Shown here: piece by piece, positions 1,754-33,874 of the stretch
Layout: the number at the start of each line of letters is the position of its first letter
Position numbering within the stretch: the first letter of the stretch is position 1
NCBI GenBank assembly: GCA_900321575.1
Contig: ONWT01000047.1
Coordinates: forward strand, 1-36,238
Length of the DNA stretch: 36,238 nt
Direction of reading: 5' to 3'
Source: an uncultured Lentisphaerota bacterium
GTDB lineage: Bacteria > Verrucomicrobiota > Kiritimatiellia > RFP12 > UBA1067
The notes under the pieces: generated by a model
The model's input: the letters and a program-made list of their open reading frames with translations, nothing else
Database searches by the model: none
What the model was told of the DNA's origin: nothing
Program-made: the position numbers and the translations under genes

Positions 1754-1778
1754 GCGCTTTCTTTTCCCGTTCCACAGC

Positions 1779-3954: not shown

Positions 3955-3959
3955 AGAAA

Positions 3960-3984: not shown

Positions 3985-4071
3985 TTGTTGACATATGAAG
4001 ATTACTTATTTAGCACATTAGCCGAAAAATTTGGTATTATATGTGCGACGATAAGAGAAAGAAGATTCAAT

Positions 4072-5490: not shown

Positions 5491-5753
5491 ACATGTGCCT
5501 TCGAAAAAGTGTATACAGAGTGTAGAGAAGTGGCCAATTGTCTACAACGGATCAGAAAGAATGAACACCGATGAACATATCTCAACAGAAAAGTCAACAG
5601 CCGGAAAAAGCCCCGACCATTGCAAAAAGGGGCTTTCGCGAGTTGTGAACATTATCAACAAACCTAATAATATTATAATATAGACTCTTTTAATTATCCG
5701 TATTATTTGATACAATCTACACCAAGCCAGAAGTAAGGAAGAAAGGATACGCA
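5491..5753. other. dnaA-dnaN spacer: candidate oriC segment (DnaA-box-like sites plus an AT-rich tract)
   Basis: It contains ATTATCAACA at 5651-5660, TTATCCGTA at 5694-5702, and a nearly pure A/T tract AATAATATTATAATATA at about 5666-5682. This is the classical location of oriC in many bacteria. No replication evidence is available from sequence alone. Confidence 0.35.
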
Positions 5754-9417: not shown

Positions 9418-9448
9418 AGAGCCAAAATACAGGCCGCCGGTCTGCCGT

Positions 9449-9470
9449 TTTTTTCTGCGCGCAGAAAAAA
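9449..9470. terminator. Palindromic hairpin TTTTTTCTGCGCGCAGAAAAAA (bidirectional-terminator-like)
   Basis: This perfect 22-nt palindrome lies 32 nt after the XRE stop. U/A tracts on both sides would allow termination in either direction. Confidence 0.45.
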
Positions 9471-9496
9471 TCCTTTCTGCACGCAAAAAAGATTCT

Positions 9497-9517
9497 TTCT
9501 GCGCGCAGAATTTTTTT
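9497..9517 (+). terminator. Rho-independent terminator-like hairpin TTCTGCGCGCAGAA followed by T7
   Basis: This is a second copy of the CTGCGCGCAG palindrome (9497-9510), followed directly by TTTTTTT (9511-9517). A degenerate third copy, TTCTGCACGCAAAAAAG, lies between the two. Confidence 0.55.
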
Positions 9518-9644: not shown

Positions 9645-10097
9645 ATGACAATGTTCACGAGCAAAAATCTCGTGGCGGTTGCTGTCGCAGCAATCGTCTG
9701 TTTGGTCGTTGTTTTTTACGGATGCTCGCGCAAGAACGAGCCTGCGCCCGAGGGTGAGAACAAACCTGCCGCCGAGGGTGAAGTCGTGTATCGCCTAGAA
9801 GACCCGCAATACCGCGCCGCTCTAGACGAGAGGCTCGATGCCCAGAAGGAGTTGACCAAGCTGCGCTACCGCCTCGTTACGGAGATGCAGGCGAAGATCG
9901 CCGCCGCTAAGGAGCGCCTCGCGACAGAAGACGAAGCCGTGCTGAAGGCCGAGCTTGAAAAGGACCCCGAATGGAACTCTCTTTATAAACGTGTCGAAGA
10001 TTTGAACACCGCGCTCGAAGACGAGCGCAAGCGTGCCGAGGCAGTCGTGCGCAACCGCATAATGTCCGACGCGCAAAAGGAGTCCTCCGGAAAATGA
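9645..10097 (+). CDS. Small N-terminally anchored (possible lipoprotein) helical protein, partner of giant protein 1
   Basis: The 150-aa product has a hydrophobic helix LVAVAVAAIVCLVVVFYG|C, a possible non-canonical lipobox. The rest is charged and helical, with the motif LEKDPEWNSLYKRVEDLN. It has a strong RBS, and its stop overlaps the next ATG (ATGA at 10094-10097). Confidence 0.8.
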   Translation: MTMFTSKNLVAVAVAAIVCLVVVFYGCSRKNEPAPEGENKPAAEGEVVYRLEDPQYRAALDERLDAQKELTKLRYRLVTEMQAKIAAAKERLATEDEAVLKAELEKDPEWNSLYKRVEDLNTALEDERKRAEAVVRNRIMSDAQKESSGK

Positions 10098-13000: not shown

Positions 13001-16000
13001 ACGAAGCTCGCGTTCGTGGACGAGACTGGCGCCAAGCTCTACTATGATGTGGATACGTGGAACGCCCAAGGCGAGTCCATCGTCTGGGTGAAAGTGCCTT
13101 TCGCCCGCAAGGGTAGCGTAATAAGGTTCTATTGGGGCATAGACGGCGCAGTTTCCGCGCCTTCCAACGACGGCAAGATGGTGTGGAGCGACTACGCGGG
13201 CGTCTGGCACATGGAGAATACTGTAGTAGACGCGGCCGGCAAGTCCGAGGACGGTACCAAGCATGCAAAGGCCGCCTATACGGGCACCGGTATGTTCGCA
13301 GGCGCTTTGGGCCGCAACGAGACAGGATCCAATGGGCCGATAGCGACAGTACCTTCCGGCGACGCCATCAATTCCATCAGCAATGATGCGTTCACGGTTT
13401 CGGCATGGGTGCGGCTTAAGTCTACCGCAACGAATTGGGCGTATATCTTTTCGCGCAAGGCAATCGACGGCACGGTCTCTTGGGGCTTGCAGTTCAGGGG
13501 CAACGGGAATGCGGGAACATACGATGCTCTGCAGGCGTGGTATGACGGGAACAGCAACAGGGCCCTATTCAGAGACACGACTGTCTTCGGCACGGCAAAC
13601 GAGTGGGTCCATGTAATGGTTGGCTACATGAGCGGCGAAGCCAAGCTTTGGCTGAACGGCGTGCAGTATTCGACTGCGGACATTCCCACAGGTTTGCCGT
13701 CGCTCGACCCGACGATGGATTTCTACATAGGCGGTCTTCTCTCCGGACACGGTACGCTCAACGGCGATATGGACGAAGTCCGCATAAAGGTCGGCGCGGT
13801 AAATCAAGCAGAAGTCGCCGCCGCCTATTCGAATGCGACATTGAGCGCCTACCGCAACTCTACGGACGAAACCTTCCTCAAGACAGGGCTCGTGCATGTC
13901 GATGGCGAGCCGGTAGATTACTGGAATCCCAAGCTGTCGCTCTCGTCCTCCGTCTGGGAGGCAGGCAGCGCGCCCGAATCGCTGGCGTTCACAAACGGAG
14001 TCCTGCGCAGCGGCGCGGCGGTCACCAACTGGTGCGTAAACCTGACTACCGGCGAAACAGCGCTCGAGAACGTCACTGTCGACGGACTCAAGGCTCTCTC
14101 GGAGGGCTCGTACCGCATATGGAACAAATCCCTTGGCGACTATGCAGTCGCGGATGTCTCGCTCGACTTTACCGTGACGAAGTCGTCAAGCGTGCCTGTT
14201 GTCGGCGAAACTTCCGACGGCCGCATATTGCTGATGAACCACGACTGGTCGCAGACGAAAGAGATAACCGGTCAGGGCTGGGCGTGCACGAATGTGTCGA
14301 AAGCTACTTTCTGGGAGCATAGCGAGACGAACGAGGTCGCCAAATACAATCTGAAGAGCAGCTATATCTCCACGCTCTGGACCTGGGACGAAGGCCACAC
14401 CGCCACCAACCGCCTCTGGCATCTCGACAACTGCCGCCACGGCAATACTTTCCCGTCGGACAATGAAGAAGCCCTCGCCCCCGATCAAAACTATCTTCCC
14501 TTTAGCGCAAAGTCCGGTAGCATAGATGATGATACAGATTCGACCTCGCCGACCGACCGCGCGGGCGTCGGGCAGATTTTGATGCAGAACACCGACACCG
14601 CCATCGTCTATTCGCCTTGCTTCGACGAGGGTATCGGCACCATATATTTCGATGCAGTGAACATGATGACGAATATCGTCTCCGTTTCTACCGACGGCTC
14701 GCTAACAAACGACTGCTCTTACCGTATCGTTGTCGAGTTCGCCACAAATACCACATTCGACTTGCCGCCGACCGAGGCGAATGCCCATGTTTTTGACGAG
14801 GTGACGAAACTCTATGCGAAGCTCAACGATGAATGCTGGCATCCTTGCGAAAGCTATATGGTCAGCGTGAGCAACTCGACGATGACGCTTGTCGGTCACG
14901 GGCAGAATATCGATCTCAATGTCACGACTGGCGGGAAAATGGACGAGTTCTACCGCATTTATGTTCCACTTGAAATACGCCAGCCCGTTCGTTTCAGGAT
15001 AAGGCGCGTCTCGACGGACCTCGCCAAAGTGGACGACCCTGACGACTCGTTTGTGCTGATCGACAATATAGTCGCGTCGTATCCGCGCATGACCGCCTCT
15101 CTCGGCAACCTCGGCTATTACGACACGGCCAAGAAGGGCAGCGAGATTCTCGGCTACGAGGACGCATTCGAGCCGAAGTTCCCCGCCGTAGGCGACCAAG
15201 TCCGCGCCAGGGCCGGCATTTCGCGCTATGTGAACTCCGGCGCGGAGTATGGCGAGCCGTCGAGCTTCTTCGCCTCCGCGAAGATGCATTACCGCTGGCG
15301 CTACCTCAACCAGGTCGTGGGCGACTGGAAGGTTGTCGAACTCGTCCCAGTCGAAAACAATCGAATGGTGGCGAAAGAGAACGATACGCTGGTCCTTCCC
15401 GGCCAGGCCGGCGATGTCGAGTACTGGTTCGAGTCCGTCCTCCAGGCGCCGTACTACCGCCATGTGGACTATTCGGGCAGCAATCTGGAGGAGGCGTTCA
15501 ACAGGATATACACAGAGAACAATCCGGTGGTCGTGACCAACGCCTCCGACTCCAGCTATATTGCGACGTGCGGCACCAACTGGTTTGTGCGTCTCAGAGA
15601 GGGGCACAGCGAATACGAGAGCATGTCCATCATCACGAGGGCGGCCGGCGACACCTCCGTCTGCGAGACGAATGTGATGTCGATAGTCTCCGACGGCAAA
15701 TGGCGCGGCTTCGTGAAGACGCGCAGCGCTCTTGAGGACGGCCTCGAATTCCGCTTCGAGGGCGTAAAGCTCAATGATGTCGTGGAAGGCGTACCCTTGC
15801 GCGAAACATTGAAGTGGACCTCGCAAGTGCCGATGACTAACAGCCTGCCCGCCACAGGCGGCGCAGTTTTCAGCGACGGTGAAAAATGGGAGAAAGTGCT
15901 GTGCGACGCCGCGACAGGCTATCTTATATTCACCTATGACGAGTCGGGCACGATAGGCGTCGGGCGCGGCGATCACCAGAACTTCAATTCCTGGCCGACC

Positions 16001-19000
16001 GCCGCCGCGAAGAAGGGGCTCTTCGTCGGTTCGCAGCTTGACGTAAACACGTCCAGCTACGATTCGACGGAGGTCGATTCTGATATCGCGAACTGGGCGG
16101 TATCTTCCGCCACGAACAAGAACTGGCGGGAATCGTTCTCGGTGGGTTCCGGCCAGATAGCCGCGAAGATATATCCGCGCGACCAGTCTTTCTCGGTGAC
16201 CAACCTCGCGAGCGGATGGACGGCCCACAACGCTTCGTGGACGTACGAGCGCTGGGCGTGCGATTTCGCGCAGAACGGCGTTTTCGGCGGCAAGACAGCT
16301 CTCCAGCTCGAAGGCTGCGGCCGCGGCATATTCTCGCTCGAAAGCGCGAGCGACTATCCTAACGGACTCGACACCGTGCGTTTCAAGGCCCGTGTCGCAC
16401 AGTTCAACAATTTCAACGATTTCGCATACTACAACCAGGCTACCTACGACACAAGCACACACAAGATAGTCAACGCTTTTAAACAGAAGAATTACGCGTT
16501 CGCGACTTATACCGCGCTTACCCTAAACAATGACAAGGCCGGTTACGACGGTGACGGCTCGGTCTCGTTGATCGCCTGTTACGACCCGACATATGGCGCG
16601 TACGAAGCGCGAGTTTCGCGCGGCGGGCAGAACGGCGAGAACCTGAGGTTCACGCTCTACAGGTGGTCGGTCAATAACGGCGCGATGACATGCGATGTGC
16701 TTGGCACGAACGACTTCCCCTATGCCTCGGTGGCGGATCTTCACCGCGACAACGACAATGTGGGGCTGATGCCGGTATTCTACATTTCCGTCCAGGAGCA
16801 TGTCACGGAGAACAGCGTAGCCGGAACGCTCATTCACGCTGGCGTAAGCACCAAAGCGATCAACACGAGCACCTCGCTCACGGCCGGAACGCTCAACAAC
16901 CAGACTTTCGATTCGAGCGTCTATTTCGACACTTCCGACAAGCGTCTCAAGGCGGGAACGGTCGGCGTGCTCGCGCGGAATTGCGCCGGAGCGTTTCTAA
17001 AACCCGTTAAGCTGTCCGCCCCGATATCCCATATCGGTAGCCACGACATGAGCGGTTGGGAGACGCCGAACAAGATAAACCGCTACACGAACGCGCGCGT
17101 GACGTTTGAGGGCTCGCTTGATATAGAAACATGTGATTCGTCCGACCCCGACGAATATTTTAGCTGCTGGTCGTTGCCCCCCGGCCGCACTCTGAAATTC
17201 ACCAAGGGCAACAACAACGTGTTTTACTGGGGCTTTACCGGCATCACCAATGTTTCGCAGAGAATCGCCGTTCAGACGGCCACGCACTCCAAGTCGAACA
17301 CGGGCACGCACCAGGAGACCGACTGGACGACGGTTACCAACATAACCGTTACAGGTTTCGCCGACCAGACTTTCGATTGTGCCGTCCGCAACCATGAGCA
17401 GTGCGACGTGCGCCTCAAGGTTCTCGGCGGCATAAACGACAATCGCCTTGATGTGACGATCGACGATGTCGAGCTTACGCAGTGGAACGGACAGTCGACG
17501 CCCAACTACGACACAAATAGAAACAACGGCTTCCCCGAGAAATATGTCTACACGTCAGCCTGGATAAACCAGGACAACAACGAGCTCAAGACCAAGGCGG
17601 TGAAGCTGCAGCCCGCCAGGGCGGCGAAAGCCTCGACACCCGTCTCGATACGCACGCCGGCCATGAAGGGCGTGGGCGCATTCCACATCAGGTGGCGCAA
17701 CGCCGACAGCCGCGCGAAGTTCCTCGTGCAGCAATGCAAAGACACTCCTGCGAGGGTGGACAGCAACCTCATCTCGCTGACGGATGCTGCGGCCGACGAT
17801 ACTTCGCTCGGGTGGGAGACTATAGAGACGCTCGACTTTACCGACCCCGCCTCCGACTACTACGGCAGGACGGACGGCAGCGAGACGCTCTTCTTCACCG
17901 AGCGCTATGACGAGAAAAACAAGACCAACACCGTCTTGCGCCTTGTCGCCGACCAGTCCGTCGTCGCCACCATAGCCGCCGACACGACAATCGCGCTCAC
18001 CGACCCCGAATACGGCTCTATCGAGATTCTCGAGTCTTATGTCTGGGACCTTCCTCCCTACGACAAACGCAGCTGGAGCGGATGGAACTTCAGGGCCGAC
18101 GGCTGGGCGGGCGAGCCTTCGATGTGGGCCAGCCTCGGCGACGCCACTACCGGACTTTCGGGGCTCCTCAACAACACCGTCGAGGACGAGAGCTGTCTCG
18201 CCGATTCTAAAGACTATTATCGCGGCAACAAGCCTTACATACAGTCGCCGACGTTCGAGGCGAACTGCATAGGGTCCGTCGAGTTCCGCGCGAGGCTCTA
18301 CGACCCGGTGTTCGATATTTCCGCAGGCCATCCCGCCGTAGTTTCTGTCTACGGTGCGAACGAGATCGACAAGGAGACGGGCGAGCCGGCCAGCTGGAAT
18401 CTGGTTACGAATGTCATCGTAGACTCGTCTTCGTATGTTCTCAAGTCCGCCAAGTTGGGCGAGCAGTATTGCGCACTGCGCTTTGCCGTCGACGGAGTGC
18501 GCGGCATAACGGGCGACGCGGGCGAACCGGAATACGACCCGCCGCTAAGGGTCGCGATCGACGATATATGCGTAATTGAGCAGCCGATACCGTCCATCCG
18601 CTTCAGGACGAACTTCGTGCGTCCGTTCCGCAACGACGAACTGTTGAAGAGCGGAGACCTTATCGGCGACATAGATTCGTCCGCCGAGCAGCCGATTATC
18701 GGCGAGTCGTTCGGCTTCCAGGCCGAGGTTGTCCTGGACGATATCGAAAACGAGATTGTCGTCGACGACCCCGAAAAACCTCTTCGCGTCTATCTCGCCT
18801 ACTGCACGTCGGCTTCGCCGTGGGGCTGGCGCAACTGGATAGAAAAGGCGGAGCCCGTCGAGCTCGCCCGCGTCGAAGATGCCGACGGCCGTCTTGTCTA
18901 CCGCTCTACAATCTCAAGCCCGAAGTCGATCTGTCCAGCGCAGTTCATAGGCGGCGACAGCGCGCTCTCCGGCAAGCAGTACAGACTCGTGCAATACCAT

Positions 19001-20809: not shown

Positions 20810-20818
20810 TGTGAAGTG

Positions 20819-20847
20819 TTGAAAAAAAACGGATAAAGTGGTAAAAT
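20819..20847 (+). promoter_or_regulatory. Candidate internal promoter TTGAAA-17 nt-(TGg)TAAAAT for cassette 2, with an A8 tract in the spacer
   Basis: The -35 is at 20819-20824, the extended -10 TG at 20839-20840, and the -10 at 20842-20847. The -10 ends 7 nt before the ATG at 20855 and there is no SD. The A8 run spans 20822-20829. This is a motif match only. Confidence 0.35.
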
Positions 20848-20854
20848 ACAATCA

Positions 20855-21259
20855 ATGAAACTCGGTAAAGGTACGCTAATCACCCTGGCGGTGGTTGTGG
20901 CGGTCGCTGTATTGGCGGTCGCTATCGCGCTTTTGCCGAAAACGGGCGGCGGCGAAGGCGCTGGCGACGCTACGGTAGAAGTCTCGGCAGAAGCGTATAA
21001 TCAAGGCATTGCCGACATTGATTCGGTGCAGCGGGCTATTGTTGCGGAACGCGCCGCAGTCATACGGCAGATGTCGGAGATAAGCGTTGCCAAGGGCAAT
21101 GACGAAGAGGCGATTCTTGCCGACCCCGAGTGGCGCAGGCTTGAAAAGGAGTTCGCGCGGCTCAACGCCGGATATGAAGCCGCGCGCCTCGACATGATCG
21201 ATTTCAGAAAGACACGCGTCGTAAAAGACGCACCAAACGCGGAAGAAGTTTCGAAATGA
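20855..21259 (+). CDS. Small N-terminally anchored helical protein, partner of giant protein 2 (distant paralog of 9645..10097)
   Basis: The 134-aa product has one TM/signal-anchor helix, LITLAVVVAVAVLAVAIALL. The rest is helical and charged, with LADPEWRRLEKEFARLN aligning to the DPEW motif of the first small protein. Its stop overlaps the next ATG (ATGA at 21256-21259). Confidence 0.8.
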   Translation: MKLGKGTLITLAVVVAVAVLAVAIALLPKTGGGEGAGDATVEVSAEAYNQGIADIDSVQRAIVAERAAVIRQMSEISVAKGNDEEAILADPEWRRLEKEFARLNAGYEAARLDMIDFRKTRVVKDAPNAEEVSK

Positions 21260-24200: not shown

Positions 24201-27200
24201 GACAACGATGAATGTGTTCATCCTGAACCGTCCTCCAGTGTTGAACAAGCCCGAGGAGCGCAACGACAGCGAGGGCAAGCCACTTGTCACTACGACGCAT
24301 ATCGGCGAAACAATCACTATACCATGGGCCGTCAACGATGTCCTTGCCGACAAGACGAACCTTACGGTGACCGCCACGACCGACGAAGGCAAGACATGGA
24401 CGACCAACACCTTCACGGCCGGCACCTCGGGCCAGTTTGAAGTCAGGTTCGACGAGGCCGGCGCCTCGAAGACAATTACGATAACGGTTACCGATCCCGA
24501 GCTCGATTCAAACTCCGCCACTCTCTACTACACCATTGCGGCTTCCAAGGTTCTCAACATTGCCGCGACCGGTCCCTCAAGCGGCGACGCGTCTATCGCA
24601 CTCTCCAGCCGCTATGCCCGCGCGAAGGGTCTGGGTGCAGGCCGCGTCTTCGTCAGCAAGAGCGACGCCACGTTCGCACGCGCCGAAGACTTCAACCTCT
24701 TCTGGAACTGCGGCATGAAGACGACTGTCTATGCGTATGGCTACGGCTATCAGCCGGACGATACGGACGACGGCACCCTTATTGGCGATCTCGACATAGC
24801 GCTCGACGAGGATGGCAATACATATGATATCGGCGACAGCTACTACACGTACAACCCCGCCGACAACTGCGGCAGCTTCTTCTACGGATGGTTGAAGGCC
24901 AAGGAAGCGGGCGGCAAGGATTATGAGCTGACGCCGTCCCCTGAAATCCGCAGCGTGAAGAACGGCAAGGTAAAAGCTACATCTACGCGCGGTTCGATAG
25001 ACCTGCCGCAAGACAAGACCGAAGACGAGCAGGGCTATGCGCAAACTTACGCAGAGGCCGTCTTCGCGAAGGAATATAAAGAGTCCGACAATATGGGCGA
25101 CATCAATGCCGATGGCGTTCCGGACTACTTCGCCATACTTGACTATGCCAACGGCCGTCTTGCTGAGCCCGATGGCCAAGGCGCGGAACTCGCCGCCGTC
25201 AACGCGCTCAACGATGACGAGGACTATCTGCCCGGCAACGCGCAGATTGTCGGTGCCAGCTTCATACCCGGCGAGACCAGCGGCTGGTCTACGCGCGGCG
25301 CTCCCTTCACCGCCCGCATGGAGATTCGCGGTTTCGGCGGAGCGGACGAAGGCGGAGCGGACGAAGCCGAAGATCTCAACGCCACAGCATATGGCGGCCT
25401 CAACTACGGCATGTTCAAGTTCGGCGCTGAACTCGAAACGGGATGGGTTTCCGACTTGGATCTCACCCAGAACGAGAAGATTTCCCTCCTGAACCATGTG
25501 TTCGCCCGCCGCGATGCCATCTTGAACAGGCGTTACACGCAGCGCCCGGGTGCAAACAAGTTTGATGGCGGAGACTGGGTTGTCGTCACCAACCTGCTCT
25601 CTACTCTCATCCGCAGCGATACTAGCTATTACGAAAACGGCGCTAATGCCAGAAAAGCCTATATTGCAGGGTTCAACGATTCTGGCGAGGATGCCATAGA
25701 CGGGTGGAACGAGGGCTTGGGCTTGGGGCACAAGATTCTTGTCCCAGTCACAAATGTTGTTGCTGCCGTCATCGGCAAGGAAGAGCTGTATCCGGCTATA
25801 ACAAATGTCACAACCAACGTCTGCTGGGTCTCCGAGTCGTATACGACTGCCGGCCATGTCCCGAGAGCAATCACAAACACTGTTGAAGTTGTCACAAACA
25901 TCTACACTGTCGGCACGACGGTGACGACGAATCTCTTCTGGCGCACTCCGTACGACAGCATTACGATCGCCGATGTCAATGTCGGCGAGTGGCTGAACCG
26001 CAAGGCTTCTGAGACTGCGTTCGATATAGCCCAGAAGGCCGCAAAGGAATACATAGACCACATTTGGAGCCATTATCTCAACCGCGATACGTCCGAATGG
26101 GGGTGGACATGCGAAAACCGCACCGATCCCACGCTTGACGACACCGACGGCGACGGATTCCCCGACGGCTACGAATATTATATCTGGTACAGCGCCGTCG
26201 TCGGGTTCAACGGCAATACGCTATCGGGCTACAGGCTTGACGTTGCCGACCGCGACAGCAGAGGCATCCCGATCACATCCGACGAGATCGCCCGCCTCTA
26301 CAACCCGAATGTCGAAGGCAACATCCATCGCGATACGGATAACGACGGCATTGCCGACTACGAGGAAATGGTTCTCGGCACAAATCCGTTCGACTGGGAT
26401 ACAGACGGCGATGGTCTTAGCGACGGGTATGAACTGACATACAATATGGATCCTCTCTCAGCTTCCGGAGAGCATGGTTGCGACATGAACACGGATGGCG
26501 ACTTTATGGCGTTCGTGGATGTCGCCGACAACAACGAGCGAGAGGAATTCAAGAACCTCCTCCAATACAGATACATATATACAGCTACAAACGGGACAAC
26601 CTGGGCGTTCTCGACGAATCTTACCGCCGAAATACGCTACATTGCGCAACGCTACCCGGCGACAAACGTCTTCGAACTTGCGGGCGTCAAAGCTTTCAAG
26701 GTCGGTAAATACGGTGTTACTAAGTATACCGACGATTCGGGCGTTACCAAGTACTATGACGACTACTACATACCTGCTACGGAAAAGCTCGACAAACTGC
26801 TGGAGTTCTTGGATCCTGACGCGACGGCATATGAGTTCGATTCCGCCTGGACGAACGCCGCCACTTTCGTGATCAATCCGCAGATTGCGCCCGTCACGCT
26901 CCGCGTTGATAAGCGCAATACCGGCCTTCCGGAGCCGCCTGACGTGGCTATGGGTCTATTCCATCATCAGGTGCACAGTGCGCTCGGCTTCGACCCCCGC
27001 ACGGGCTGGTACTCCAGCGGAAACGGGCTTTCCATGACGTCTCGCTGGAAGAACAATGCGGGTAGCGTTGTTCCCGGCGGCGCCCCGCAGAATACGGTCG
27101 CTTACACGGCCAAGTACGAATACAATTTGCCGAAGTACCTCAAAATTGTCAACAGCGACGTCGTATGGAACCCGACCAATCCGGGCGTCCCGTACGAGGC

Positions 27201-30200
27201 GACTTCGGAATCGGAAGATGGAGAGATTTCCCATTACATGACTCAGCACGGCGCCGATACCGACGCGGACGGCGTACCTGACGGATGGGAGCTCTACATT
27301 GGCGTCGATCCGGGTGTGGCATTCACCAGCGACGACGAAAGCGCCTACAACAGCATAAGAGACATTGACAAGGCCGACGGGCTTACCCTTGCCTATGAAT
27401 TCGCCGGTACCGATTCTTGCGGCGTTTACTCGGAATGCGCGTCTATATACAAATATCATCCGAGTCAGGATGAGGGCACGATGAAGAACTGGTACAACAA
27501 GTTCTTCCCGACCGATCCTCGCGAAAGCGATACCGACGGCGACTCGATAGACGATGGCGCTGAGGGTAAGAACTGGAAGGATACACTTGTCATCAACCGT
27601 ATTCCTCAGACGGACGAGGCCGGCGTGCTGATAAATTACTTCTCCATTTACGGGTCTCCTGCTGATGACGGCACGACCTCGATTCGCGGCGGCGGCTACA
27701 ACCCCTGCACGATCGATACCGACAGCGATGGTCTGCCCGACCCGTGGGAGCGTCAGTTCACAGGCGTGCTCTTCAATGGCATGACGATTTCGGATACGGA
27801 AGGCATGTCGGTCTTCGGAGAAGGCGGCGGCAAGATCGACGAGAGTGTGCGCAAGGACATAAAGGCTGCAATCGTCGCATACGATATACCGACTAACGTT
27901 CTCGCCGGTGCTGAATTCTATCACATACTCATGGGTATGGACGGCACGGTCGCCGACGCCGCCACCAGCACCGCCCTAGGTGCTTCCGATCTTGACTGGG
28001 ATGGCGACGGTCTGCAGAACTGGCAGGAGTACTTGGTTCAGGCGATGCGCCAGTTCCGCTACGACGACGACAAGACTCCGCTTCTCGGCCGCGACTGCCC
28101 GAATGTTACGGCAAACGGCGAGACGCCGGGCAGTTGGAACGGCGACAAGGGCTTCTTGAAGGTCAGCTATACCGAGCCGTTCACGGATGTTCAGCTCGAC
28201 TTCATAGGTGAAGAACTCGGCTACACCAACTTCGCCTTCTGGGCGAAAAACACCGAGAACTATTTGAAGGACCTAGGCTACTTCATAGATCCTCCCATGG
28301 CGTGGGACCATGCGCGCAATACGCTCCACCAGAAGTATATGCTGCCGCCGGCCAACATAAGGTACTATACCTACGCCAAGGGCAAGTCGCAGGCTACGGA
28401 CGGCTACGGCCATGCAATCTATACGTATGAGCTTCTGGGCAAGACGTATGAATTCACCAATGAAGTCAGCGGTACAGTCATCAGCGGTTATGGCGAGATT
28501 AACGGCAAGTGGCGTAAACTCACACCTAAGATGGTTGACAATGACCTACTTGCTATGGACACCTATGTAGTTTCGCCCGGCAAGTATTTCTCTACCGATC
28601 CTCGCCGTTGGGATACCGATGCCGACGGAATGGATGACTACTATGAGCTCTTCCATGGGCTCAACCCGATTCTCGGCGAAGTGACGCGCGAGGCCGGCAT
28701 GCACGGTACATACTCGAGAAATAGGGATATAATCGCCAGGGCTACAGATGGCAAGGTCAGCCCGGGCAACAACGCTTGGATTGGTTGGGCCAACGAAGAA
28801 GCTCCGGTGTACGATCCCATACGCTATCCGTGGTTGATGGGCGCCGGCGAGTGCGATGCCGACAGCGACGGTTTGCGCAACTTTGAAGAGTCGTTGCTGG
28901 CCAATGTGACATCGCCCAACGCGATGCATACCGACCCGACGCCGCTGTGGATGACCGATGCGTCTGTCAAGACTCGTTCATCCAAGATAATCATCACGAC
29001 AAATACGCCTGTGTTGATCGATATCGGTGGCGGCAATTTTGTGCCGGTCTGGGACTACGATCCGAAGACGGGCGAGGAATTCCAGGTTTACCAGACGACA
29101 ACGGTAGATACCGACGAGAAGGTAGACCTTGTCGACACGCCTTCGTACACCGCCCTCTTCTATGAAAACGAACTTAAGGGCAAAGGCGTCAACAATAGCT
29201 CCGCGATGGCGTCGCTCCCTTATGGCGGGTGGAATCTGAGTGATTCCGCCTACGCCTTCTCGTTCGAGCAGAACGAGGGCTATGACACAGACAACGACTG
29301 GCGCAGCGACGGCGTCGAATTGAAGAACACGGCCGAGGGCGCGAGCGATCCTCTGAACTTTGCCGACCCGCAGCGCCGCCAGAGCGTCTGGTTCGGCGGT
29401 GTCGGCGACGAGGGCATGCTCGTAAGCCGCGAAGACGGCAAGCGCACGGCCGGTGGGGCCGACCTCTTCAAGCAGTTCACGGTCGAGGCCTGGGCGCGTC
29501 CCGAGAATGCCGCCTCCGGCAAGGACCAGTATATTGTCAGCCGTGCGGTGTATTGCAGCGGCTCCAGCCTCGTCAATCCTGAAGCGCAGGTGCGCCTGGA
29601 TTTTGCGCTCGGTCTGGACGGGAACGGCAGGGCCTTTGCCGAGATCATGAACTCGGTCGACGTGTCCTACCGCATAACCGTGGCGACAAACGTGCTGGAC
29701 AATATCTGGACTCATCTTTCTGCAACATTCGACGGCTCGACATTCGTTTTCTACGTCAACGGCAACCCTGTGCAGGCGCAGGAGACAACCATAATTCCCG
29801 CTAACGGCACAACGGCCATTTTGCAGAATCCGCACTTTGTCCGTATGGAGGGCGGCTCCTACAGGCAGAGTCCCAGCATGATAGCGGTTGGCGCGCGTCC
29901 TGTTGGCGAAACGGTCTTCAATATCGCCAATGTGTCGTCTTCGACCGTTTGGAGCGATTTGGCGACCGACTTCTTCAAGGGCAGCGTCGACGAAGTGCGT
30001 TGCTGGGACGGCGCACGCACGGCGGACGAAATCAAGAGTGACTACCGTACGCGCTACACGCCAGAGCGTGTGAAGGAGAACCGCCTCGCCGTCTATGACG
30101 CCTATATAGCCGGTGGAAGCCGCAACGACACCAACGGCAGAAAGATTCTGCCTCCCGAGTTGATACACCACTACGACTTCTCGACTCTCGCGGGTGCCCA

Positions 30201-33200
30201 TGAAGCTGCGTATGTACAGCAGGTTCCCGCCGGTTTTGGCAGCAAGCTGCTCGATTCCGTGCGTCGTCCCGACACAGGGGCGCGCATGGATGAACTGGTC
30301 GAGGTTGGCTGGTGGCGCGGTGTCGTCGGCCATCCCGATATTGGCTCGAAGGTCTACACGTCCCCCAATGCGGTGCCGTGGGTGCAGGATACGGTCGCGC
30401 ATCTGCCGAAACTCTGCGGCAGCGTCGCCGATAGCGTGTTCTGGAGCGAGAACTTCGCTGGCTATGTCGCCGCCGAAGATAACGGATTGTCGACGTATTC
30501 GTTCCCGAATTCGATGAATCCGTACAATGTCGTCGAAACGCTGAACGAGTATTCCTATCTGCGGGCCAAGCTCGCGAAGGTAAGCAACACGACGAACGAG
30601 ACGGCAAACCTCTATCCGGAGATGTCGCTCATGACGAATGGAACCGTCTTCGCACGCTTCTATTACGACAACCGCCGCGGTTTCTCGGGCAACTCCGATC
30701 TTGTCCCGCTCGGCAGCGCTTTCGCCAAGCGTCTTGAGGAAAGCTGGGATGAGCAGGGCTCCGAAACTCCGTGGGCGATAACCACAAACGGCTCTTCTGT
30801 CGACGGTGATTCTGACGATGACGGCATACCCGATTGGGCCGAGGATGCCGGATATGCCTATCCGTTCGACTATCTCAAGGCTCTTGCCGGCGGACTTCTG
30901 CCGGACGGTACGACAAATCCTGCGTTCGCCAACGAAGAGGACTTCGATGCGGACGGCGTGCCAGACTGGTGGGAGAAGTACTATGGCGTCTACCAGTACA
31001 ACGCGGATGACGATACCGACGGTGACGGACTCTCCAACTATCAGGAATATCTGATCAGCGTCAAGTATACGAATCTCGACCCGCATTACAATCTCAATCC
31101 AAAGAGTGCGTATTCGGCCGGTACGGCTGTTTCGGACTACTTCCTCCGCTACGGCAACCTCTATTACGGCGAACTTTTCGCAGACCATGACCACATCGAA
31201 GACTGGTGGGAAGACGCGCATCAGGCCGAGTTCACGCTTGGCACGACGCGCCTCGCCGATTTCTCGCGCTTTGTCTACGATGCGAACCGCGATGTCTTGG
31301 GCGACGGCAGAAAGAATTGGGATGTAGCCCGGTTGGCCGTCCGCTTTGGCGAGGAGGGCATCTATTCCAAAGTCGTCAACACCATTACATTGACCCGCTC
31401 GAAACCTACCGAGGCCGAGTTGGACGATTGGGTTGAGGCTCTAAGGCAATCCAGTGATGCCACCGCTTCTGTTATTTCCTACACGACTACGGTCGCTAGC
31501 GATGACAGTTCGAGAACTGGAGTCATGTATACCCGAACAGTGCAGATTGCAATACCGACAACAGTCTTCAGCACGATGGAAAACCGCCACTATCCTGAAA
31601 TTGACGCATCGTTCATCTATAGAGGCGGTAGGCATGATATTGCTACGAATTCCGTACTTGTGTTGAGCGCATGGTGCAAGTCGAGCCCGATAACCGGCAA
31701 TCCCGATGCCCAGTGGGTTGTCAATGTAGGCGATATTTGCGATACCCTGACTCGAGCCCAGCTAGGCTCTCAGCCGCAGCAAGGCTATCTCAGACCTGGC
31801 CCGAATACGTTCACGGCCTATATCGTGCCCGCTGCAGACACAGAAACCATACCTCCCTACAATGTCGGGTTGCCTTTCGGCGTTGTCACCGATGTCGAGG
31901 TCGGCAGCATGGCGGTCGAGCCGTTTGCGATAGAACTTACCGACACCAATGCGTCCATGCCGCGTATTGACATTGTAAACGCGCTGAAGCTTCAGGATGT
32001 TTACGCTCAGGCTGCCGGTGCGGGCAGTGATGACGCGTTGGTCCTCTACAAGGAAATGTCCGAAAAATGCACAGATCGCGGTTACTTTGGCGAATCCGAC
32101 GGCCTTAGGCAGTCCGACTATGTCGGCCTTGATACGCGCGGCGCATCGACCAATGAAATAGACAAGGTGCGTGTGAGAATTCTCCGCTCAGGCGTCAACG
32201 GCCAGTTTGTGTGGAACGGGGTCGATTTCGCCAGCAGCGAACCCGTTCTCGATACGGTGTTGCCGGTTGGAGTGCATGATATCATAACAGAAGCGGACAT
32301 TCTCTCCGCCTGTTCCGACGCCGACCTTGATTGGGGCGCCGTTCGCCAGATATGCATAGACAATCGCCTGCAGTGGATCGATATCTCGAACATCAGTTAC
32401 CGCATTGTTCTGTTCGACGGCACAACCGATCGCACCATTGCGACCAACAACAACCTGTGCGTTATGTTCGTCAACCGGTTCGAAGACGAGCTGACACCTG
32501 TCGCGAATATGGATGTTCGTACCTATAGCGGACAGCCGACATTCAGCTGGACCCACGACAACACTATCGGCAAGGAGTATCCTGCTTTCCAGTTGCGCGT
32601 GTGGGAAGTTGACGGCTCGACGCTAGTCTTCGATTCGGGCGTCCAGCGTGCGCCTGCCCGCGATGCCGCAGGCCGCTACAACTGGACGGCTCCCCTCTGG
32701 GTGGGCTCGATTACCGACAAGGACATTGTCTTCGAGCCAAACAAGACCTACCTGTGGAGCGTTTCCATGCTCGATGCGAAATACATCAAGCCAATCGGCG
32801 AGACCAAGGTCAAATTCATGATGCAGGAGACTTCGCCTAGCGGCGGTTCGACCGACTACGGCATCATTCCCGTAACGGTCAAGTATCTTGGGCCAGGCGA
32901 AGTCGTCACAAACAGCCATGTTAAGTGTCTGCGCGTAGAAGCGTTCATTTCGCAGGACTTCACCGGGGTGCCGTTCGGAGTTGGCTATGTGGCCGACGAC
33001 ACAGATCTCCGTTCGATTTACAAGAACTCCGTCAACGTACACATTGCTGGTCTGCCGACTGACCGCGAGTACTACATCCGCGCATACATCGATACGAACG
33101 GCAACGGCAAGCACGAAGACTGGGAGAGCTGGGGCTACGCCTGCTACCGCGGCGCATCCGACCGCAATGACTACTATACGCCCCGTTCGTTCAAGCCGGC

Positions 33201-33846
33201 GAATGTCGAGCAGGCTGTTGATTGCGACATCTATGTCGAAGATGCCGACACAAACTGCAACATGGTGCCCGACATTCTGGAGTATCAGACCGACGGCAAT
33301 GGGCAGAAGTTGCTCTCGCCCTACATAGCCTACACGGCGAGCGATGCCTCCAAGATAGCTGCTGTCGACGATGCGAAGTCCGGCACCTCGGGCAATAAGA
33401 AGACGCTCAGGTCCGCGGCCCCGCTCTACGCATATGCTACCGCGCTCAATGCGATGGCCACTAGTGCCACGACGCCCGGTCTGCTTGCCGTCGCCACTGG
33501 CGGTGTCAACTACGAGAGCACCGACTCGACCCACATCAAGATCAAGTCCTTCTCGCTTGAAGAGGGCATCTCGCTTGAGGTTGTCGTTGACGAGGACTAC
33601 CAGGTTGTCAGCTACGGCTACGACACCGGCACGATCAAGGTTGGCGTCGAATATGCCACGACTCTCGAAAACGGCGGCGATTGGCAGAGTGCCGGCGAGC
33701 CTGACTCGATATCGTTCCCGCTTAAGGCCGGCACGACCGAAATCGGCGCCGAGAACCTGGACGCCATCAAGGCGGCAATCGAAAAGATCGAATCCAAGGT
33801 GGCCGGTGCGGCGTACTTCCGCGTGAAGGCCGTAGCCATAGAATGA
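21256..33846 (+). CDS. Giant secreted protein 2 (4196 aa): signal peptide, Ig/PKD-like N-terminal third, about 13 thrombospondin-type-3 Ca-binding repeats with an embedded LamG domain, unassigned C-terminal ~900 aa
   Basis: A single uninterrupted 12.6-kb ORF. The signal peptide is MRKNTMKIKNLAKMTVAAFSLLASVTLAKA|GD, with an alternative start at Met6 (21271). No anchoring signal I can recognise is present (no LPXTG, PEP-CTERM, T9SS CTD or autotransporter barrel). Confidence 0.9.
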   Translation: MRKNTMKIKNLAKMTVAAFSLLASVTLAKAGDIYSIDLVSTSLYGGRVPTKDSPLLAGEKAVIRVRMVNRGWDDPTASGGRTWYFSPKVAFSDEMVKSPSFAPAFGFLLGGKAIYATYLDTVNVSTTYTDIFFEYTVQTGDLALPALYMGKDGDPVTSESVTPEYSLRNSLYWALTNDKSETATLSFAAAEVYDDITKPTDQPGSPNSEPTGDALGLYVKTVDFDENYSDPDNAIWRSVGYNDTDTSNGVQPSITVKGGVAESATTVYVWVEDETKAEPYPRKSATQPNGAEGYDDGYGERLILPVTIAAGSQSQTFLLKGLALDETATVCMSSSKDRIKVTGGFKTTWVSRKINIVQLEPSVTLTLRDLNGDATSELQCSDNYKEYIATLDVKLSTTPTGNIDVDISADPDVLKTSPTNIVLSTSSDKALNPWESPVTKVSFSAGDANPTKTLFVYALGSSDQIENTAATFTPSSTSAAATQFTKWNSCKMTLKRASATVKPQDSQSTIDDMELSSDYDLTLVVGGSYNDLRNVGGNWTVKYYFKDATGKILGGKTIKNPYTATAPATVTGGDLTGTLLLTIPSDHISADAASLELWVVSPSGSVSDHAVISIPEGPSRGMEAFVVDADTEENLYEIEANEGDVKTFKFKLSEKYNNVAYAFLKPQEDSMTNSISCSFYAYDGYKGVTIDLKNGVSRVAKMTMLDGEAIGRFEVVICSSEEYDATKKLDYNSGAVLTVAAANVEPVVREVRYGSTSVAPGGKLSVALPLNIDSTFRATIYEPGKGDLATFETQWYFDDDPYGGVNGDGWYSVVGDPSKTNMTHKFSSSGTWSVKVRCRDKEMAAEDEWSDEFAFTVSVDDEPAVIITPRTGGYTYYEDQTGLAESAFDVSLIGAPVISAGNDPLKVRLTVQNLGASGLVELSTNLVTFTTRQDGRSGNDALSHSFYFKALNGTIDSGNEGFAITATVENPEVDTLGRTWNPTTMNVFILNRPPVLNKPEERNDSEGKPLVTTTHIGETITIPWAVNDVLADKTNLTVTATTDEGKTWTTNTFTAGTSGQFEVRFDEAGASKTITITVTDPELDSNSATLYYTIAASKVLNIAATGPSSGDASIALSSRYARAKGLGAGRVFVSKSDATFARAEDFNLFWNCGMKTTVYAYGYGYQPDDTDDGTLIGDLDIALDEDGNTYDIGDSYYTYNPADNCGSFFYGWLKAKEAGGKDYELTPSPEIRSVKNGKVKATSTRGSIDLPQDKTEDEQGYAQTYAEAVFAKEYKESDNMGDINADGVPDYFAILDYANGRLAEPDGQGAELAAVNALNDDEDYLPGNAQIVGASFIPGETSGWSTRGAPFTARMEIRGFGGADEGGADEAEDLNATAYGGLNYGMFKFGAELETGWVSDLDLTQNEKISLLNHVFARRDAILNRRYTQRPGANKFDGGDWVVVTNLLSTLIRSDTSYYENGANARKAYIAGFNDSGEDAIDGWNEGLGLGHKILVPVTNVVAAVIGKEELYPAITNVTTNVCWVSESYTTAGHVPRAITNTVEVVTNIYTVGTTVTTNLFWRTPYDSITIADVNVGEWLNRKASETAFDIAQKAAKEYIDHIWSHYLNRDTSEWGWTCENRTDPTLDDTDGDGFPDGYEYYIWYSAVVGFNGNTLSGYRLDVADRDSRGIPITSDEIARLYNPNVEGNIHRDTDNDGIADYEEMVLGTNPFDWDTDGDGLSDGYELTYNMDPLSASGEHGCDMNTDGDFMAFVDVADNNEREEFKNLLQYRYIYTATNGTTWAFSTNLTAEIRYIAQRYPATNVFELAGVKAFKVGKYGVTKYTDDSGVTKYYDDYYIPATEKLDKLLEFLDPDATAYEFDSAWTNAATFVINPQIAPVTLRVDKRNTGLPEPPDVAMGLFHHQVHSALGFDPRTGWYSSGNGLSMTSRWKNNAGSVVPGGAPQNTVAYTAKYEYNLPKYLKIVNSDVVWNPTNPGVPYEATSESEDGEISHYMTQHGADTDADGVPDGWELYIGVDPGVAFTSDDESAYNSIRDIDKADGLTLAYEFAGTDSCGVYSECASIYKYHPSQDEGTMKNWYNKFFPTDPRESDTDGDSIDDGAEGKNWKDTLVINRIPQTDEAGVLINYFSIYGSPADDGTTSIRGGGYNPCTIDTDSDGLPDPWERQFTGVLFNGMTISDTEGMSVFGEGGGKIDESVRKDIKAAIVAYDIPTNVLAGAEFYHILMGMDGTVADAATSTALGASDLDWDGDGLQNWQEYLVQAMRQFRYDDDKTPLLGRDCPNVTANGETPGSWNGDKGFLKVSYTEPFTDVQLDFIGEELGYTNFAFWAKNTENYLKDLGYFIDPPMAWDHARNTLHQKYMLPPANIRYYTYAKGKSQATDGYGHAIYTYELLGKTYEFTNEVSGTVISGYGEINGKWRKLTPKMVDNDLLAMDTYVVSPGKYFSTDPRRWDTDADGMDDYYELFHGLNPILGEVTREAGMHGTYSRNRDIIARATDGKVSPGNNAWIGWANEEAPVYDPIRYPWLMGAGECDADSDGLRNFEESLLANVTSPNAMHTDPTPLWMTDASVKTRSSKIIITTNTPVLIDIGGGNFVPVWDYDPKTGEEFQVYQTTTVDTDEKVDLVDTPSYTALFYENELKGKGVNNSSAMASLPYGGWNLSDSAYAFSFEQNEGYDTDNDWRSDGVELKNTAEGASDPLNFADPQRRQSVWFGGVGDEGMLVSREDGKRTAGGADLFKQFTVEAWARPENAASGKDQYIVSRAVYCSGSSLVNPEAQVRLDFALGLDGNGRAFAEIMNSVDVSYRITVATNVLDNIWTHLSATFDGSTFVFYVNGNPVQAQETTIIPANGTTAILQNPHFVRMEGGSYRQSPSMIAVGARPVGETVFNIANVSSSTVWSDLATDFFKGSVDEVRCWDGARTADEIKSDYRTRYTPERVKENRLAVYDAYIAGGSRNDTNGRKILPPELIHHYDFSTLAGAHEAAYVQQVPAGFGSKLLDSVRRPDTGARMDELVEVGWWRGVVGHPDIGSKVYTSPNAVPWVQDTVAHLPKLCGSVADSVFWSENFAGYVAAEDNGLSTYSFPNSMNPYNVVETLNEYSYLRAKLAKVSNTTNETANLYPEMSLMTNGTVFARFYYDNRRGFSGNSDLVPLGSAFAKRLEESWDEQGSETPWAITTNGSSVDGDSDDDGIPDWAEDAGYAYPFDYLKALAGGLLPDGTTNPAFANEEDFDADGVPDWWEKYYGVYQYNADDDTDGDGLSNYQEYLISVKYTNLDPHYNLNPKSAYSAGTAVSDYFLRYGNLYYGELFADHDHIEDWWEDAHQAEFTLGTTRLADFSRFVYDANRDVLGDGRKNWDVARLAVRFGEEGIYSKVVNTITLTRSKPTEAELDDWVEALRQSSDATASVISYTTTVASDDSSRTGVMYTRTVQIAIPTTVFSTMENRHYPEIDASFIYRGGRHDIATNSVLVLSAWCKSSPITGNPDAQWVVNVGDICDTLTRAQLGSQPQQGYLRPGPNTFTAYIVPAADTETIPPYNVGLPFGVVTDVEVGSMAVEPFAIELTDTNASMPRIDIVNALKLQDVYAQAAGAGSDDALVLYKEMSEKCTDRGYFGESDGLRQSDYVGLDTRGASTNEIDKVRVRILRSGVNGQFVWNGVDFASSEPVLDTVLPVGVHDIITEADILSACSDADLDWGAVRQICIDNRLQWIDISNISYRIVLFDGTTDRTIATNNNLCVMFVNRFEDELTPVANMDVRTYSGQPTFSWTHDNTIGKEYPAFQLRVWEVDGSTLVFDSGVQRAPARDAAGRYNWTAPLWVGSITDKDIVFEPNKTYLWSVSMLDAKYIKPIGETKVKFMMQETSPSGGSTDYGIIPVTVKYLGPGEVVTNSHVKCLRVEAFISQDFTGVPFGVGYVADDTDLRSIYKNSVNVHIAGLPTDREYYIRAYIDTNGNGKHEDWESWGYACYRGASDRNDYYTPRSFKPANVEQAVDCDIYVEDADTNCNMVPDILEYQTDGNGQKLLSPYIAYTASDASKIAAVDDAKSGTSGNKKTLRSAAPLYAYATALNAMATSATTPGLLAVATGGVNYESTDSTHIKIKSFSLEEGISLEVVVDEDYQVVSYGYDTGTIKVGVEYATTLENGGDWQSAGEPDSISFPLKAGTTEIGAENLDAIKAAIEKIESKVAGAAYFRVKAVAIE
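23560..23840 (+). other. PKD-like domain in giant 2
   Basis: FETQWYFDDDPYGGVNGDGWYSVVGDPSKTNMTHKFSSSGTWSVKVRCRDKEM...FAFTVSV resembles the PKD pattern W.FGDG....G....H.Y...G.Y.V.L.V.D. Boundaries are approximate. Confidence 0.45.
25336..25365 (+). repeat. Perfect 15-bp tandem duplication (GGCGGAGCGGACGAA x2), in frame (GGADE-GGADE)
   Basis: Read directly from the sequence. Both copies are in the giant 2 reading frame, since 25336 is a codon start. Confidence 0.9.
26137..31053 (+). repeat. Dispersed thrombospondin type-3-like calcium-binding repeats (DxDxDGxxDxxE), about 13 copies
   Basis: Examples are DDTDGDGFPDGYE, RDTDNDGIADYEE, DTDGDGLSDGYE, DTDADGVPDGWE, DTDGDSIDDGAE, DTDSDGLPDPWE, DWDGDGLQNWQE, DTDADGMDDYYE, DADSDGLRNFEE, DTDNDWRSDGVE, DSDDDGIPDWAE, DADGVPDWWE and DTDGDGLSNYQE. 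They were counted by eye and their DNA sequences have diverged. Confidence 0.7.
29380..30045 (+). other. LamG (concanavalin-A-like / Laminin_G_3-like) domain embedded among the TSP3 repeats of giant 2
   Basis: QSVWFGG..GMLVSRE...FTVEAWARPENA...QYIVSRA...WTHLSATFDGSTFVFYVNGNPV...FKGSVDEVRCWDGARTADEIKSDY follows the same pattern as the three LamG units of giant 1. Confidence 0.6.
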
Positions 33847-33874
33847 TCTAGACAACACAAGAGAAAGAAAATCA

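Follow-up and report, generated by a model that had tools for sequence, protein, structure and literature searches.

A small-protein family encoded directly before giant exported proteins in Kiritimatiellota, with a possible accessory role at the envelope

What does a small envelope protein do when its gene stands directly in front of that of a giant exported protein? This question is raised by a contig of an uncultured Lentisphaerota bacterium (ONWT01000047.1, assembly GCA_900321575.1), the whole of which, as publicly deposited, forms the 36,238-bp window analysed here. Four genes on its plus strand, in the order S1, G1, S2 and G2, span 24,202 nt, or 67% of the window; S1 and S2 encode small proteins, and G1 and G2 giant ones. 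A sequence-only reading of the window had placed these four open reading frames (ORFs) correctly, in their coordinates, their lengths and their extent of 24.2 kb (two thirds of the window), and had seen in them two tandem cassettes of a functional two-component unit. We find that S1 and S2 belong to a family that appears undescribed, and that its genes stand directly before a giant gene, or before an ORF that runs to the end of the contig, at all of the ~25 distinct loci examined. As to what this pairing means, we give about an even chance to the reading that the S1/S2 family is a dedicated envelope-anchored, periplasm-facing accessory (an escort, docking factor or tether) of giant Sec-exported proteins in Kiritimatiellota.

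Linkage of a small-protein family to giant genes

For the synteny census, a hidden Markov model (HMM) of an alignment of 79 diverse family members was run on six-frame segments of the window and of 24 further loci. This returned 26 small-gene copies, and all 26 have a long ORF next to them on the same strand, at a distance of -4 to +133 nt. Where the following ORF is complete it encodes 2674, 2689, 3157, 3571 or 4196 aa, and at the other loci with ~10 kb of downstream DNA it exceeds 3100 aa and is still open at the contig end. An apparent exception is locus L014, with a 394-aa ORF that stops 20 nt short of the end of a 3-kb contig; the small gene of L016 is identical to that of L014, and the ORF that follows it there has at least 898 aa. 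A long ORF also follows the small gene in nine of nine further loci. Among the more distant members, at the P0148 locus, a giant of at least 2768 aa is followed by a small gene and then by an ORF of at least 957 aa; at the P0064 locus, the small gene overlaps through ATGA an ORF of at least 2062 aa; and at the P0137 locus, the ORF after the small gene has at least 776 aa. Four contigs of distant members, each ~1 kb long, are informative solely through the N-terminus of the downstream ORF, which in three of the four is of G2 type, with a signal peptide and GD[IV]xSI (ADVYSI in L030), and in L031 shows the variant N-terminus NGIASI. With duplicates collapsed, this makes ~25 distinct loci and no exception to the rule of a small gene before a giant or contig-end ORF, so that the expectation that small genes sit directly before giants across related loci was borne out.

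The layout of the operon nevertheless differs by lineage. The order S-G1-S-G2 is found in the window and very probably on the 117-kb and 66-kb contigs of close relatives; G1-S-G2 is found in L004, L008/9, L011, L012 and L025, and in L008 G1 is preceded by ~500 nt of non-coding DNA instead of a small gene; S-G1-G2, with no small gene between the giants, is found in L001/2 and L017; and S-G2, with no G1-type gene upstream, is found in L027 and L028. All layouts have in common that one small gene or more shares an operon with these giants, and a small gene with a G2-type giant is the most widespread pairing. The small gene alone is duplicated, in a copy number and position that vary with the lineage. 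Of the two-component unit proposed earlier, the genetic linkage thus holds and the duplicated pairing does not.

S1 and S2 are, from sequence comparison, true distant paralogs, as had been proposed from a shared C-proximal motif, which does recur in both as DPEW: BLASTP aligns them with an E-value of 2e-4 over 77 residues, and hhalign, applied to the S1 and S2 families collected separately, gives a probability of 96% and an E-value of 2.5e-9 over 81 columns. Both also show the layout first described for them, with a charged helical body behind a hydrophobic N-terminus. S1 consists, in order, of a signal peptide, a Pro/Glu-rich linker, a helical hairpin and the tail KESSGK. It had been taken for a helix-anchored membrane protein; it is instead a predicted lipoprotein, because its lipobox G26-C27 is kept in relatives (at least 90% conserved among the 79) and aligns to the lipobox of Lpp. 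An AlphaFold2 (AF2) model of S1 made from the family alignment has helices at residues 54-92, 97-105 and 108-149 and a disordered linker, with a predicted local distance difference test (pLDDT) of 82.8 overall and >97 over roughly residues 60-130. S2 begins with a predicted uncleaved hydrophobic anchor that has no Cys, followed by its helical body. The Cys is likewise absent, and the hydrophobic anchor kept, in the 17 collected S2 relatives (76-99% identical) and in the more distant P0158.

How large is the family? Word-indexed searches recovered 25 S1 relatives and 17 S2 relatives, all of which lack both a Pfam domain and an informative name, two being entered as 'hypothetical protein'; a third such search with a broad profile added few new homologs. 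An exhaustive HMM search with a joint profile gave 422 clusters at 50% identity with E<=1e-3, 193 of them with E<=1e-10; the best 150 of the 422 are all stand-alone proteins of 63-193 aa. The family signature, drawn from the 79-member alignment, opens with a signal peptide ending in x-G-C and a Pro/Glu/Ala-rich linker, continues with 'YMxDPxFR' at the start of the first long helix and 'ELEKDPEW' between both long helices, and closes with a tail that is variable in length and composition and ends in [IV]-S-K. The G-C pair, L104, W110 and L113 are each at least 90% conserved in this alignment. A lipobox is present in 123 of the 150 best representatives, and most of those that lack it were called from the internal Met of the YMxDP motif onwards.

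Searches of profile and structure collections linked the family to nothing described. S1, S2 and their relatives have nothing above threshold in Pfam or NCBIfam, and six family members have no match in PHROGs; weak matches of the small proteins to PycTM, TrbI and BamD are confined to the hydrophobic N-terminus. The family profile against PDB sequences came back empty except for the signal peptide of BamD, and Foldseek of the S1 model against the PDB gave generic helical hairpins only (Vipp1/PspA, UvsY, CHMP4B), with E>=0.17. Because neither the profile libraries nor PDB sequences hold a match, and because the literature retrieved on giant genes and on Lpp-like tethers describes nothing similar, the small-protein family, the N-terminal module of G2 and the G1/G2 operon appear undescribed. 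The statement that no described family has this arrangement therefore stands, and of the findings that might have spoken against it, neither a characterised family free of giant linkage nor a lack of S1-S2 similarity was encountered. As for the hosts, two matching genomes point to Kiritimatiellota, namely an 'uncultured Kiritimatiellaeota' metagenome-assembled genome (MAG) sampled from a Hadza gut and the MAG RUG11810, labelled 'uncultured bacterium', in whose name we take RUG to stand for rumen; the family hosts are probably gut or rumen Kiritimatiellota.

The giants and their junctions with the small genes

Both giants had been credited with signal peptides ending in AKA and with LamG domains, and both features were seen again, the first by eye and the second in Pfam. 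G1 matches Laminin_G_3 (E 4.5e-36, 124.7 bits) and DUF2341 (59.6 bits), each in three stretches; G2 matches Laminin_G_3 (E 8.8e-18, 65.3 bits) in two stretches and TSP3_bac (43.2 bits); and all three families exceed the Pfam gathering score. The G1 repeats are ~450 aa each and combine DUF2341, LamG and an immunoglobulin-like part. In sequence and in Pfam/NCBIfam scans the giants show no C-terminal hydrophobic segment and no known sorting domain, and phmmer with full-length G1 and G2 found no match in the PDB. We rejected the idea that G1 and G2 are paralogs, as they share no BLASTP similarity; judged from sequence, they are two separate orthologous series, each collinear with its counterparts at other loci, that form one conserved gene pair. 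The picture of two tandem cassettes as a duplicated two-gene unit falls with this result, since the small gene alone is duplicated.

G1-type proteins have in common a ~1800-aa middle and the C-terminal 500 aa, at 27-92% identity, while their N-termini swap between DUF2341/LamG repeats in some and a Gly_rich_2 domain in others (e.g. L004 and L011). In G2-type proteins the signal peptide is followed by an invariant G-D-I as the mature N-terminus and by an N-module with an invariant Y and G-D..P within the consensus FxYTVxPGDxALP, two invariant Trp (consensus WR and YVW) and several more invariant positions; similarity continues past the module to about residue 3400. In 11 G2-type proteins the first 550 aa match no Pfam family, a profile of the module matches no PDB sequence, and a single-sequence AF2 model of the G2 N-module has a pLDDT of 33.

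Three side observations concern these genes. The TSP3 repeats of G2 have sub-threshold NCBIfam matches to the Myxococcus adhesion/motility proteins CglD and MtsD, a similarity at the level of the repeats only. Upstream of the G1-type gene of L011, an ORF at 57-1088 starts with five or six tandem ARPEPQFGAAVGA[GS]V peptides and matches no family. Finally, long minus-strand ORFs of 498-747 aa lie in or overlap the giants (14702-16462, 22477-24054, 24577-26073, 28978-31221 and 32623-34257), and antisense ORFs in the giants of relatives reach 3510 aa (L011) and 2097 aa (L012), those of L012 having no Pfam match; these look like shadow ORFs that stem from the codon make-up of the giants rather than like genes.

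We examined the junctions between small and giant genes for signs of translational coupling, which had been proposed for both pairs from the ATGA overlap at the end of each small ORF. At the S1/G1 junction the arrangement AAG GAG ... NNA TGA is kept in L001, L007, L014 and L015, is AGA GAG in L013, and is reduced to the overlap in L017, a pattern that at the sequence level confirms conserved coupling of the S1/G1 pair. The small genes before G1-type giants group together as a subclade with a predominant KESxx[K/R/Q] tail. It is the coupling signal that shapes the C-terminus here, because AAG GAG is the Shine-Dalgarno sequence for G1 and start and stop codons overlap. The S2 stop also reads A-ATG-A and overlaps an ATG at 21256. 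G2 orthologues, however, begin at the second ATG; this codon, at 21271, is 11 nt beyond the S2 stop and is provided with a GGAAGAA of its own. In the public gene call G2 has 4191 aa, and the 4196-aa form is absent from the collection. Since this gene call agrees with the aligned orthologues in the use of 21271, this is probably the functional start and the overlap at 21256 incidental. Both overlaps are thus real, and the proposed coupling is retained for S1/G1 and probably does not apply to S2/G2; across the loci, too, coupling by ATGA overlap is conserved for the S1/G1 type only.

Gaps before G2-type genes are mostly 6-41 nt, with 91 and 133 nt in two loci. The small proteins encoded before G2-type giants have for the most part an [IVT]SK ending. 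Small genes with an [IVT]SK tail (six DNA examples) have a separate GGAG-type Shine-Dalgarno sequence immediately after their stop and an ATG 10-25 nt further on, and such tails occur before G2-type giants only. At the sequence level, the subtype of the small protein is thereby shown to match the subtype of the giant.

Consensus scans of the same junctions gave promoter-like sites before both small genes (P1 and P2, Table 1). P2 matches the consensus at 10 of 12 positions and ends 7 nt before the S2 ATG, and the stretch ahead of S2 (20819-20854) holds no Shine-Dalgarno sequence, which together suggests that the S2-G2 transcript may be leaderless or near-leaderless. An extended -10-like GTGGTAAAATA lies at the same distance in L010 and in the distant L025, where the small protein is only ~28% identical. 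A terminator-like hairpin with a T-run after the preceding helix-turn-helix (HTH)/zinc-ribbon gene would, on the consensus scan, mark the 5' boundary of the unit; the same scan gave no terminator-like site between G1 and S2, nor after G2.

This tight spacing also invites another explanation, that the small ORFs are mainly translated leaders, which would load ribosomes on the giant mRNAs or sense the state of the envelope for regulation. The ATGA overlaps or very short gaps before the giants, the Shine-Dalgarno sequence of G1 embedded in the S1 tail and the possibly leaderless S2 would all suit such a role. However, a lipobox, two DPx[FW] motifs and a hairpin kept over 422 clusters go far beyond the needs of a leader ORF, the gaps are 41-133 nt in some loci, and the G2-type gene of L001 and L017 has no small gene in front of it. 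We consider a mainly regulatory or leader role very improbable.

Table 1. Positions of the S1-G2 unit, of features within and beside it, and of neighbouring genes in the window
Feature	Position (nt)	Strand	Remark
S1	9645-10097	+	150 aa, predicted lipoprotein of a family that appears new
S1 lipobox FYGC	9714-9725	+	Cys27, end of signal peptide
S1 ELEKDPEW motif	9951-9974	+	
Coupling signal in S1 tail	10077-10097	+	AAGGAG 10077-10082 (Lys-Glu), 11 nt before G1 ATG
G1 ATG	10094-10096	+	overlaps S1 stop 10095-10097, A-ATG-A
G1	10094-20809	+	3571 aa, signal peptide, Sec-exported (predicted)
G1 DUF2341-LamG repeat region	10094-13843	+	aa 1-1250, three repeats
G1 C-terminal 500 aa	19307-20806	+	conserved in orthologues
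S2	20855-21259	+	134 aa, S1 paralog
S2 LADPEW	21116-21133	+	
S2 C-terminal VSK	21248-21256	+	
G2	21271-33846	+	4191 aa from likely start (4196 aa from overlapping ATG 21256)
G2 N-module	21271-22950	+	~550 aa, conserved, no known family
G2 TSP3 repeats	about 26086-26508	+	
G2 LamG	about 29467-29814	+	
Terminator-like hairpin and T-run	9430..9444	+	after HTH/zinc-ribbon gene; consensus scan only
Three tandem 22-nt units	9452..9517	.	palindrome TTCTGCGCGCAGAA in each; middle copy with 2 mismatches
Promoter-like P1	9576..9604	+	TTGACG-17-TATTCT with TG, 40 nt before S1; consensus match only
Promoter-like P2	20819..20847	+	TTGAAA-17-TAAAAT with TG; consensus-level
mnmG	1975-3954		5' of S1-G2 unit
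dnaA	3985-5490		5' of S1-G2 unit
dnaN	5754-6848		5' of S1-G2 unit
RlmL-type methyltransferase gene	6910-8142		5' of S1-G2 unit
ORF without assigned function	8139-8825		5' of S1-G2 unit
HTH/zinc-ribbon gene	8947-9417		last gene before S1
ackA	33875-35011		first gene after G2
pta	35025-36062		3' of ackA

Candidate roles of the small proteins

If the family is a dedicated accessory of the giants, the small protein and the giant that follows would be made from the same transcript, and Sec would export the small protein, which would then stay attached to the membrane, through a lipid anchor in S1 and most of the family and through an uncleaved signal anchor in S2. On its flexible linker it would present a helical hairpin of ~95 residues, with ELEKDPEW, the most conserved motif, at the predicted turn. 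The hairpin could then bind the giant as it emerges in the periplasm, be it as an escort, as a docking factor or as a lasting tether for giants with no recognisable anchor, and the conserved turn would be the likely contact surface. In the ancestral, G2-associated form, the [IV]-S-K of the flexible tail may serve as a second attachment point, to peptidoglycan or to the partner. We infer this contact, location and role from the features of the sequences; for the location, the interchange of a lipid anchor and a transmembrane anchor suggests an inner-membrane site. The holdase, export adaptor or membrane tether suggested in the first reading are likewise candidate roles.

Several points weigh against this reading. 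The interchange of anchors is the sole basis for an inner-membrane site. Half of the census loci came from searches keyed on ELEKDPEW, and several loci duplicate one another, while the taxonomy of the family comes from the two genome matches only. The hairpin fold is generic, its best Foldseek match having an E-value of 0.17. The variable number and position of the small genes would suit an accessory of the giant pair and not a strict 1:1 partner of the gene downstream. Finally, the operon follows pilin-like genes in L001-L003 (a cluster) and in L007 (one N_methyl gene), and we rejected a constant setting of the unit within a pilin/type II secretion system (T2SS) locus, since the window and L017 have no such neighbours.

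In kind, and by analogy, the family resembles known dedicated membrane-anchored accessories of secreted proteins, none of which is a homolog. The closest in layout are LipB and CpaB, which PMC4713064 presents as chaperones with a membrane anchor, their genes adjoining those of the T2SS substrates that they serve. Lif/LipB (for lipase) and CpaB (for CpaA of Acinetobacter) likewise have an N-terminal membrane anchor, face the periplasm and are encoded by genes that adjoin those of their secreted clients; they belong to T2SS systems, and the S-giant operons of some relatives lie beside pilin/T2SS-like genes. In contrast, S1 and S2 have no Pfam lipase-chaperone match even at E<=1 and no NCBIfam match, the partners of the family are giants of 3500-4200 aa, and most of its members are lipoproteins; for them a chaperone role is putative. 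PspA/Vipp1, ESCRT-III and UvsY share long antiparallel helical hairpins with the S1 model, a likeness of fold only and not a significant one (E>=0.17). These are cytoplasmic proteins, whereas the S proteins carry export signals, and S1 and S2 have no match to Pfam PspA_IM30. The same Pfam scan of the small proteins, at E<=1, returned none of Skp/OmpH, LemA and PspA. A phage spanin was rejected, as PHROGs was empty for the six members and the neighbours are housekeeping genes (dnaA, dnaN, ackA, pta).

The C-terminus offers a second view of the small proteins. Among the best 150 of the 422 representatives at 50% identity, the final residue is Lys in 126, and the chain ends in SK in 85, in ISK in 61 and in VSK in 16; S1 and S2 both end in Lys. 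The tail before the terminal Lys ranges from none to ~30 residues, and because the Lys is kept although this tail varies, the C-terminus suggests a terminal recognition or reaction site. The codons of [IVT]SK in the six DNA examples (ATT/GTT/ACT, TCA/TCT/TCG, AAA/AAG, with TAA/TGA as stop) vary synonymously and therefore point to selection on the protein.

Such a site would be expected if the small protein were mainly a peptidoglycan tether of the Lpp/OutB type, in which an L,D-transpeptidase would link the C-terminal Lys to the stem peptide, and the membrane anchor and hairpin-bound cargo would be stapled to the wall where the giants are exported or held. There are precedents. In the T2SS of Dickeya dadantii, OutB has an inner-membrane anchor, and L,D-transpeptidases attach it to peptidoglycan at a C-terminal 'Lpp box', in which the terminal Lys is necessary and sufficient and substitutions are tolerated; the authors of that study suggest that more proteins are tethered to the wall than had been supposed (bioRxiv 10.1101/2024.09.03.610988). 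The other precedent is a verrucomicrobial lipoprotein that was recovered in the peptidoglycan fraction and whose C-terminus has Y..K (PMC10260701). OutB resembles the family in being membrane-anchored and periplasmic with a flexible, Lys-ended C-terminus, and is tied to a protein-export apparatus; it differs in that the small proteins show no Pfam/NCBIfam homology to OutB/GspB, and in that the partner of OutB is its secretin and not a secreted giant. Braun's Lpp, too, is small, helical and lipid-anchored, with a Cys in its lipobox and a Lys conserved at its C-terminus. Its body is a 56-residue trimeric coiled coil and its gene an abundant, stand-alone one, whereas the body of the S proteins is a predicted ~95-residue hairpin with long flexible linkers and their genes are tied to giant genes.

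A tether of this type would be favoured by the prevalence of the terminal Lys after tails of any length and composition, by its presence in both S1 and S2, by the synonymous codon variation and by both precedents. Against it, the last residue is Arg in L007, L011 and L021-L023, Gln in L014, L015 and L017, and Gly in L031, and what constrains the last codons of the S1 subclade is the AAGGAG/ATGA coupling signal rather than the protein. The ending [IV]SK is unlike YRK or TKK, and the mature protein has no homology to Lpp: in hhalign of the family against E. coli Lpp, for which we used an approximate sequence, the alignment covers 22 columns of signal peptide and lipobox only, at a probability of 50%. 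Loci with longer gaps lack [IVT]SK, as do several with short gaps, and with six DNA examples a contribution at the nucleotide level is possible. We therefore rate a principal role as peptidoglycan tether as possible, though on the whole unlikely.

A third explanation places the small protein as the permanent lipid anchor of a surface structure that displays G1 and G2, bound non-covalently or through a covalent link of the C-terminal Lys to the G-D-I N-module of G2. The giants have signal peptides and neither a C-terminal hydrophobic segment nor a known sorting domain, the G-D-I is invariant and the ~550-aa N-module conserved in all G2-type partners, the [IVT]SK tails go with G2-type partners only, and G2 combines LamG domains with TSP3 repeats that resemble those of the adhesion proteins CglD and MtsD, all of which would agree with such an anchor. 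But the tail ending and the G2 N-terminus show no visible covariation, S2, with its uncleaved signal anchor, should stay in the inner membrane instead of reaching the cell surface, and the N-module model, with its pLDDT of 33, adds little. A permanent surface anchor is, in our view, quite unlikely. Similarly doubtful is the more specific proposal that the terminal Lys is bonded covalently, either to peptidoglycan or to the G-D-I module of G2, which would make the small protein the lipid or wall anchor of a very large envelope structure built of G1 and G2.

Genomic surroundings and significance

The four genes have a G+C content of 0.53-0.59, and the flanks are similar. The contig probably carries the chromosomal replication origin, because mnmG, dnaA and dnaN follow one another at 1975-6848, a low-GC stretch (0.46-0.47) lies around 3000-6000, and DnaA-box-like TTATCAACA sites are found beside dnaA at 3961, 3975 and 5652; the count of TTATCAACA boxes in the window, 8 against 4 expected, is not significant alone. 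Between the HTH/zinc-ribbon gene and the promoter-like site of S1, at 9452-9517, sit the three repeats listed in Table 1. Allowing up to 2 mismatches, TTCTGCGCGCAGAA has four matches in the window against 0.26 expected, and it is absent from 31 related loci; the repeats could be an operator for the neighbouring HTH/zinc-ribbon regulator. At L027, a sigma-54 activator gene with an FHA domain (560-1936, minus strand) is divergent to P0137, a hint at sigma-54 regulation of some of these operons.

In L001 (1-9935), and also in L002 and L003 and at 2262-3179 in L007, prepilin-type N-terminal methylation motifs mark genes directly upstream of the operon, at least seven of them in number; they match weakly to GspG/H/K and to the B, C and D proteins of the 'Verru_Chthon cassette'. 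In L001 and L007 the same neighbourhood also encodes unannotated proteins of 744-1536 aa. Neither the window nor the scanned genes of L001, L007, L011, L012 and L017 include a recognisable secretin gene. Giant genes beside T2SS-like loci have been described in Omnitrophota, in an account that does not mention lipoproteins (bioRxiv 10.1101/2023.11.21.568195). The likeness to G1/G2 lies in the PVC (Planctomycetes-Verrucomicrobia-Chlamydiae) affiliation, in giant secreted proteins that bear adhesion-type domains and in pilin-like genes, here with class III signal peptides, near L001-L003 and L007; the G1/G2-type proteins are smaller (3.5-5.4 thousand aa), and their pilin neighbours inconstant.

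The folding, export and retention of proteins of 3500-5000 residues with neither a known anchor nor a dedicated secretion signal are little understood in Gram-negative bacteria, above all in Kiritimatiellota, a little-studied phylum of the PVC group. A small, easily expressed family that always accompanies such giants provides an experimental handle on this question; in fragmented metagenomes it also gives a simple marker of their operons. Should the Lys tail prove to be a link to peptidoglycan, it would represent an Lpp-box-type tether in the PVC group, dedicated to giant exoproteins, and would add to the recent evidence that covalent tethering of envelope proteins to the wall is more widespread than had been believed.

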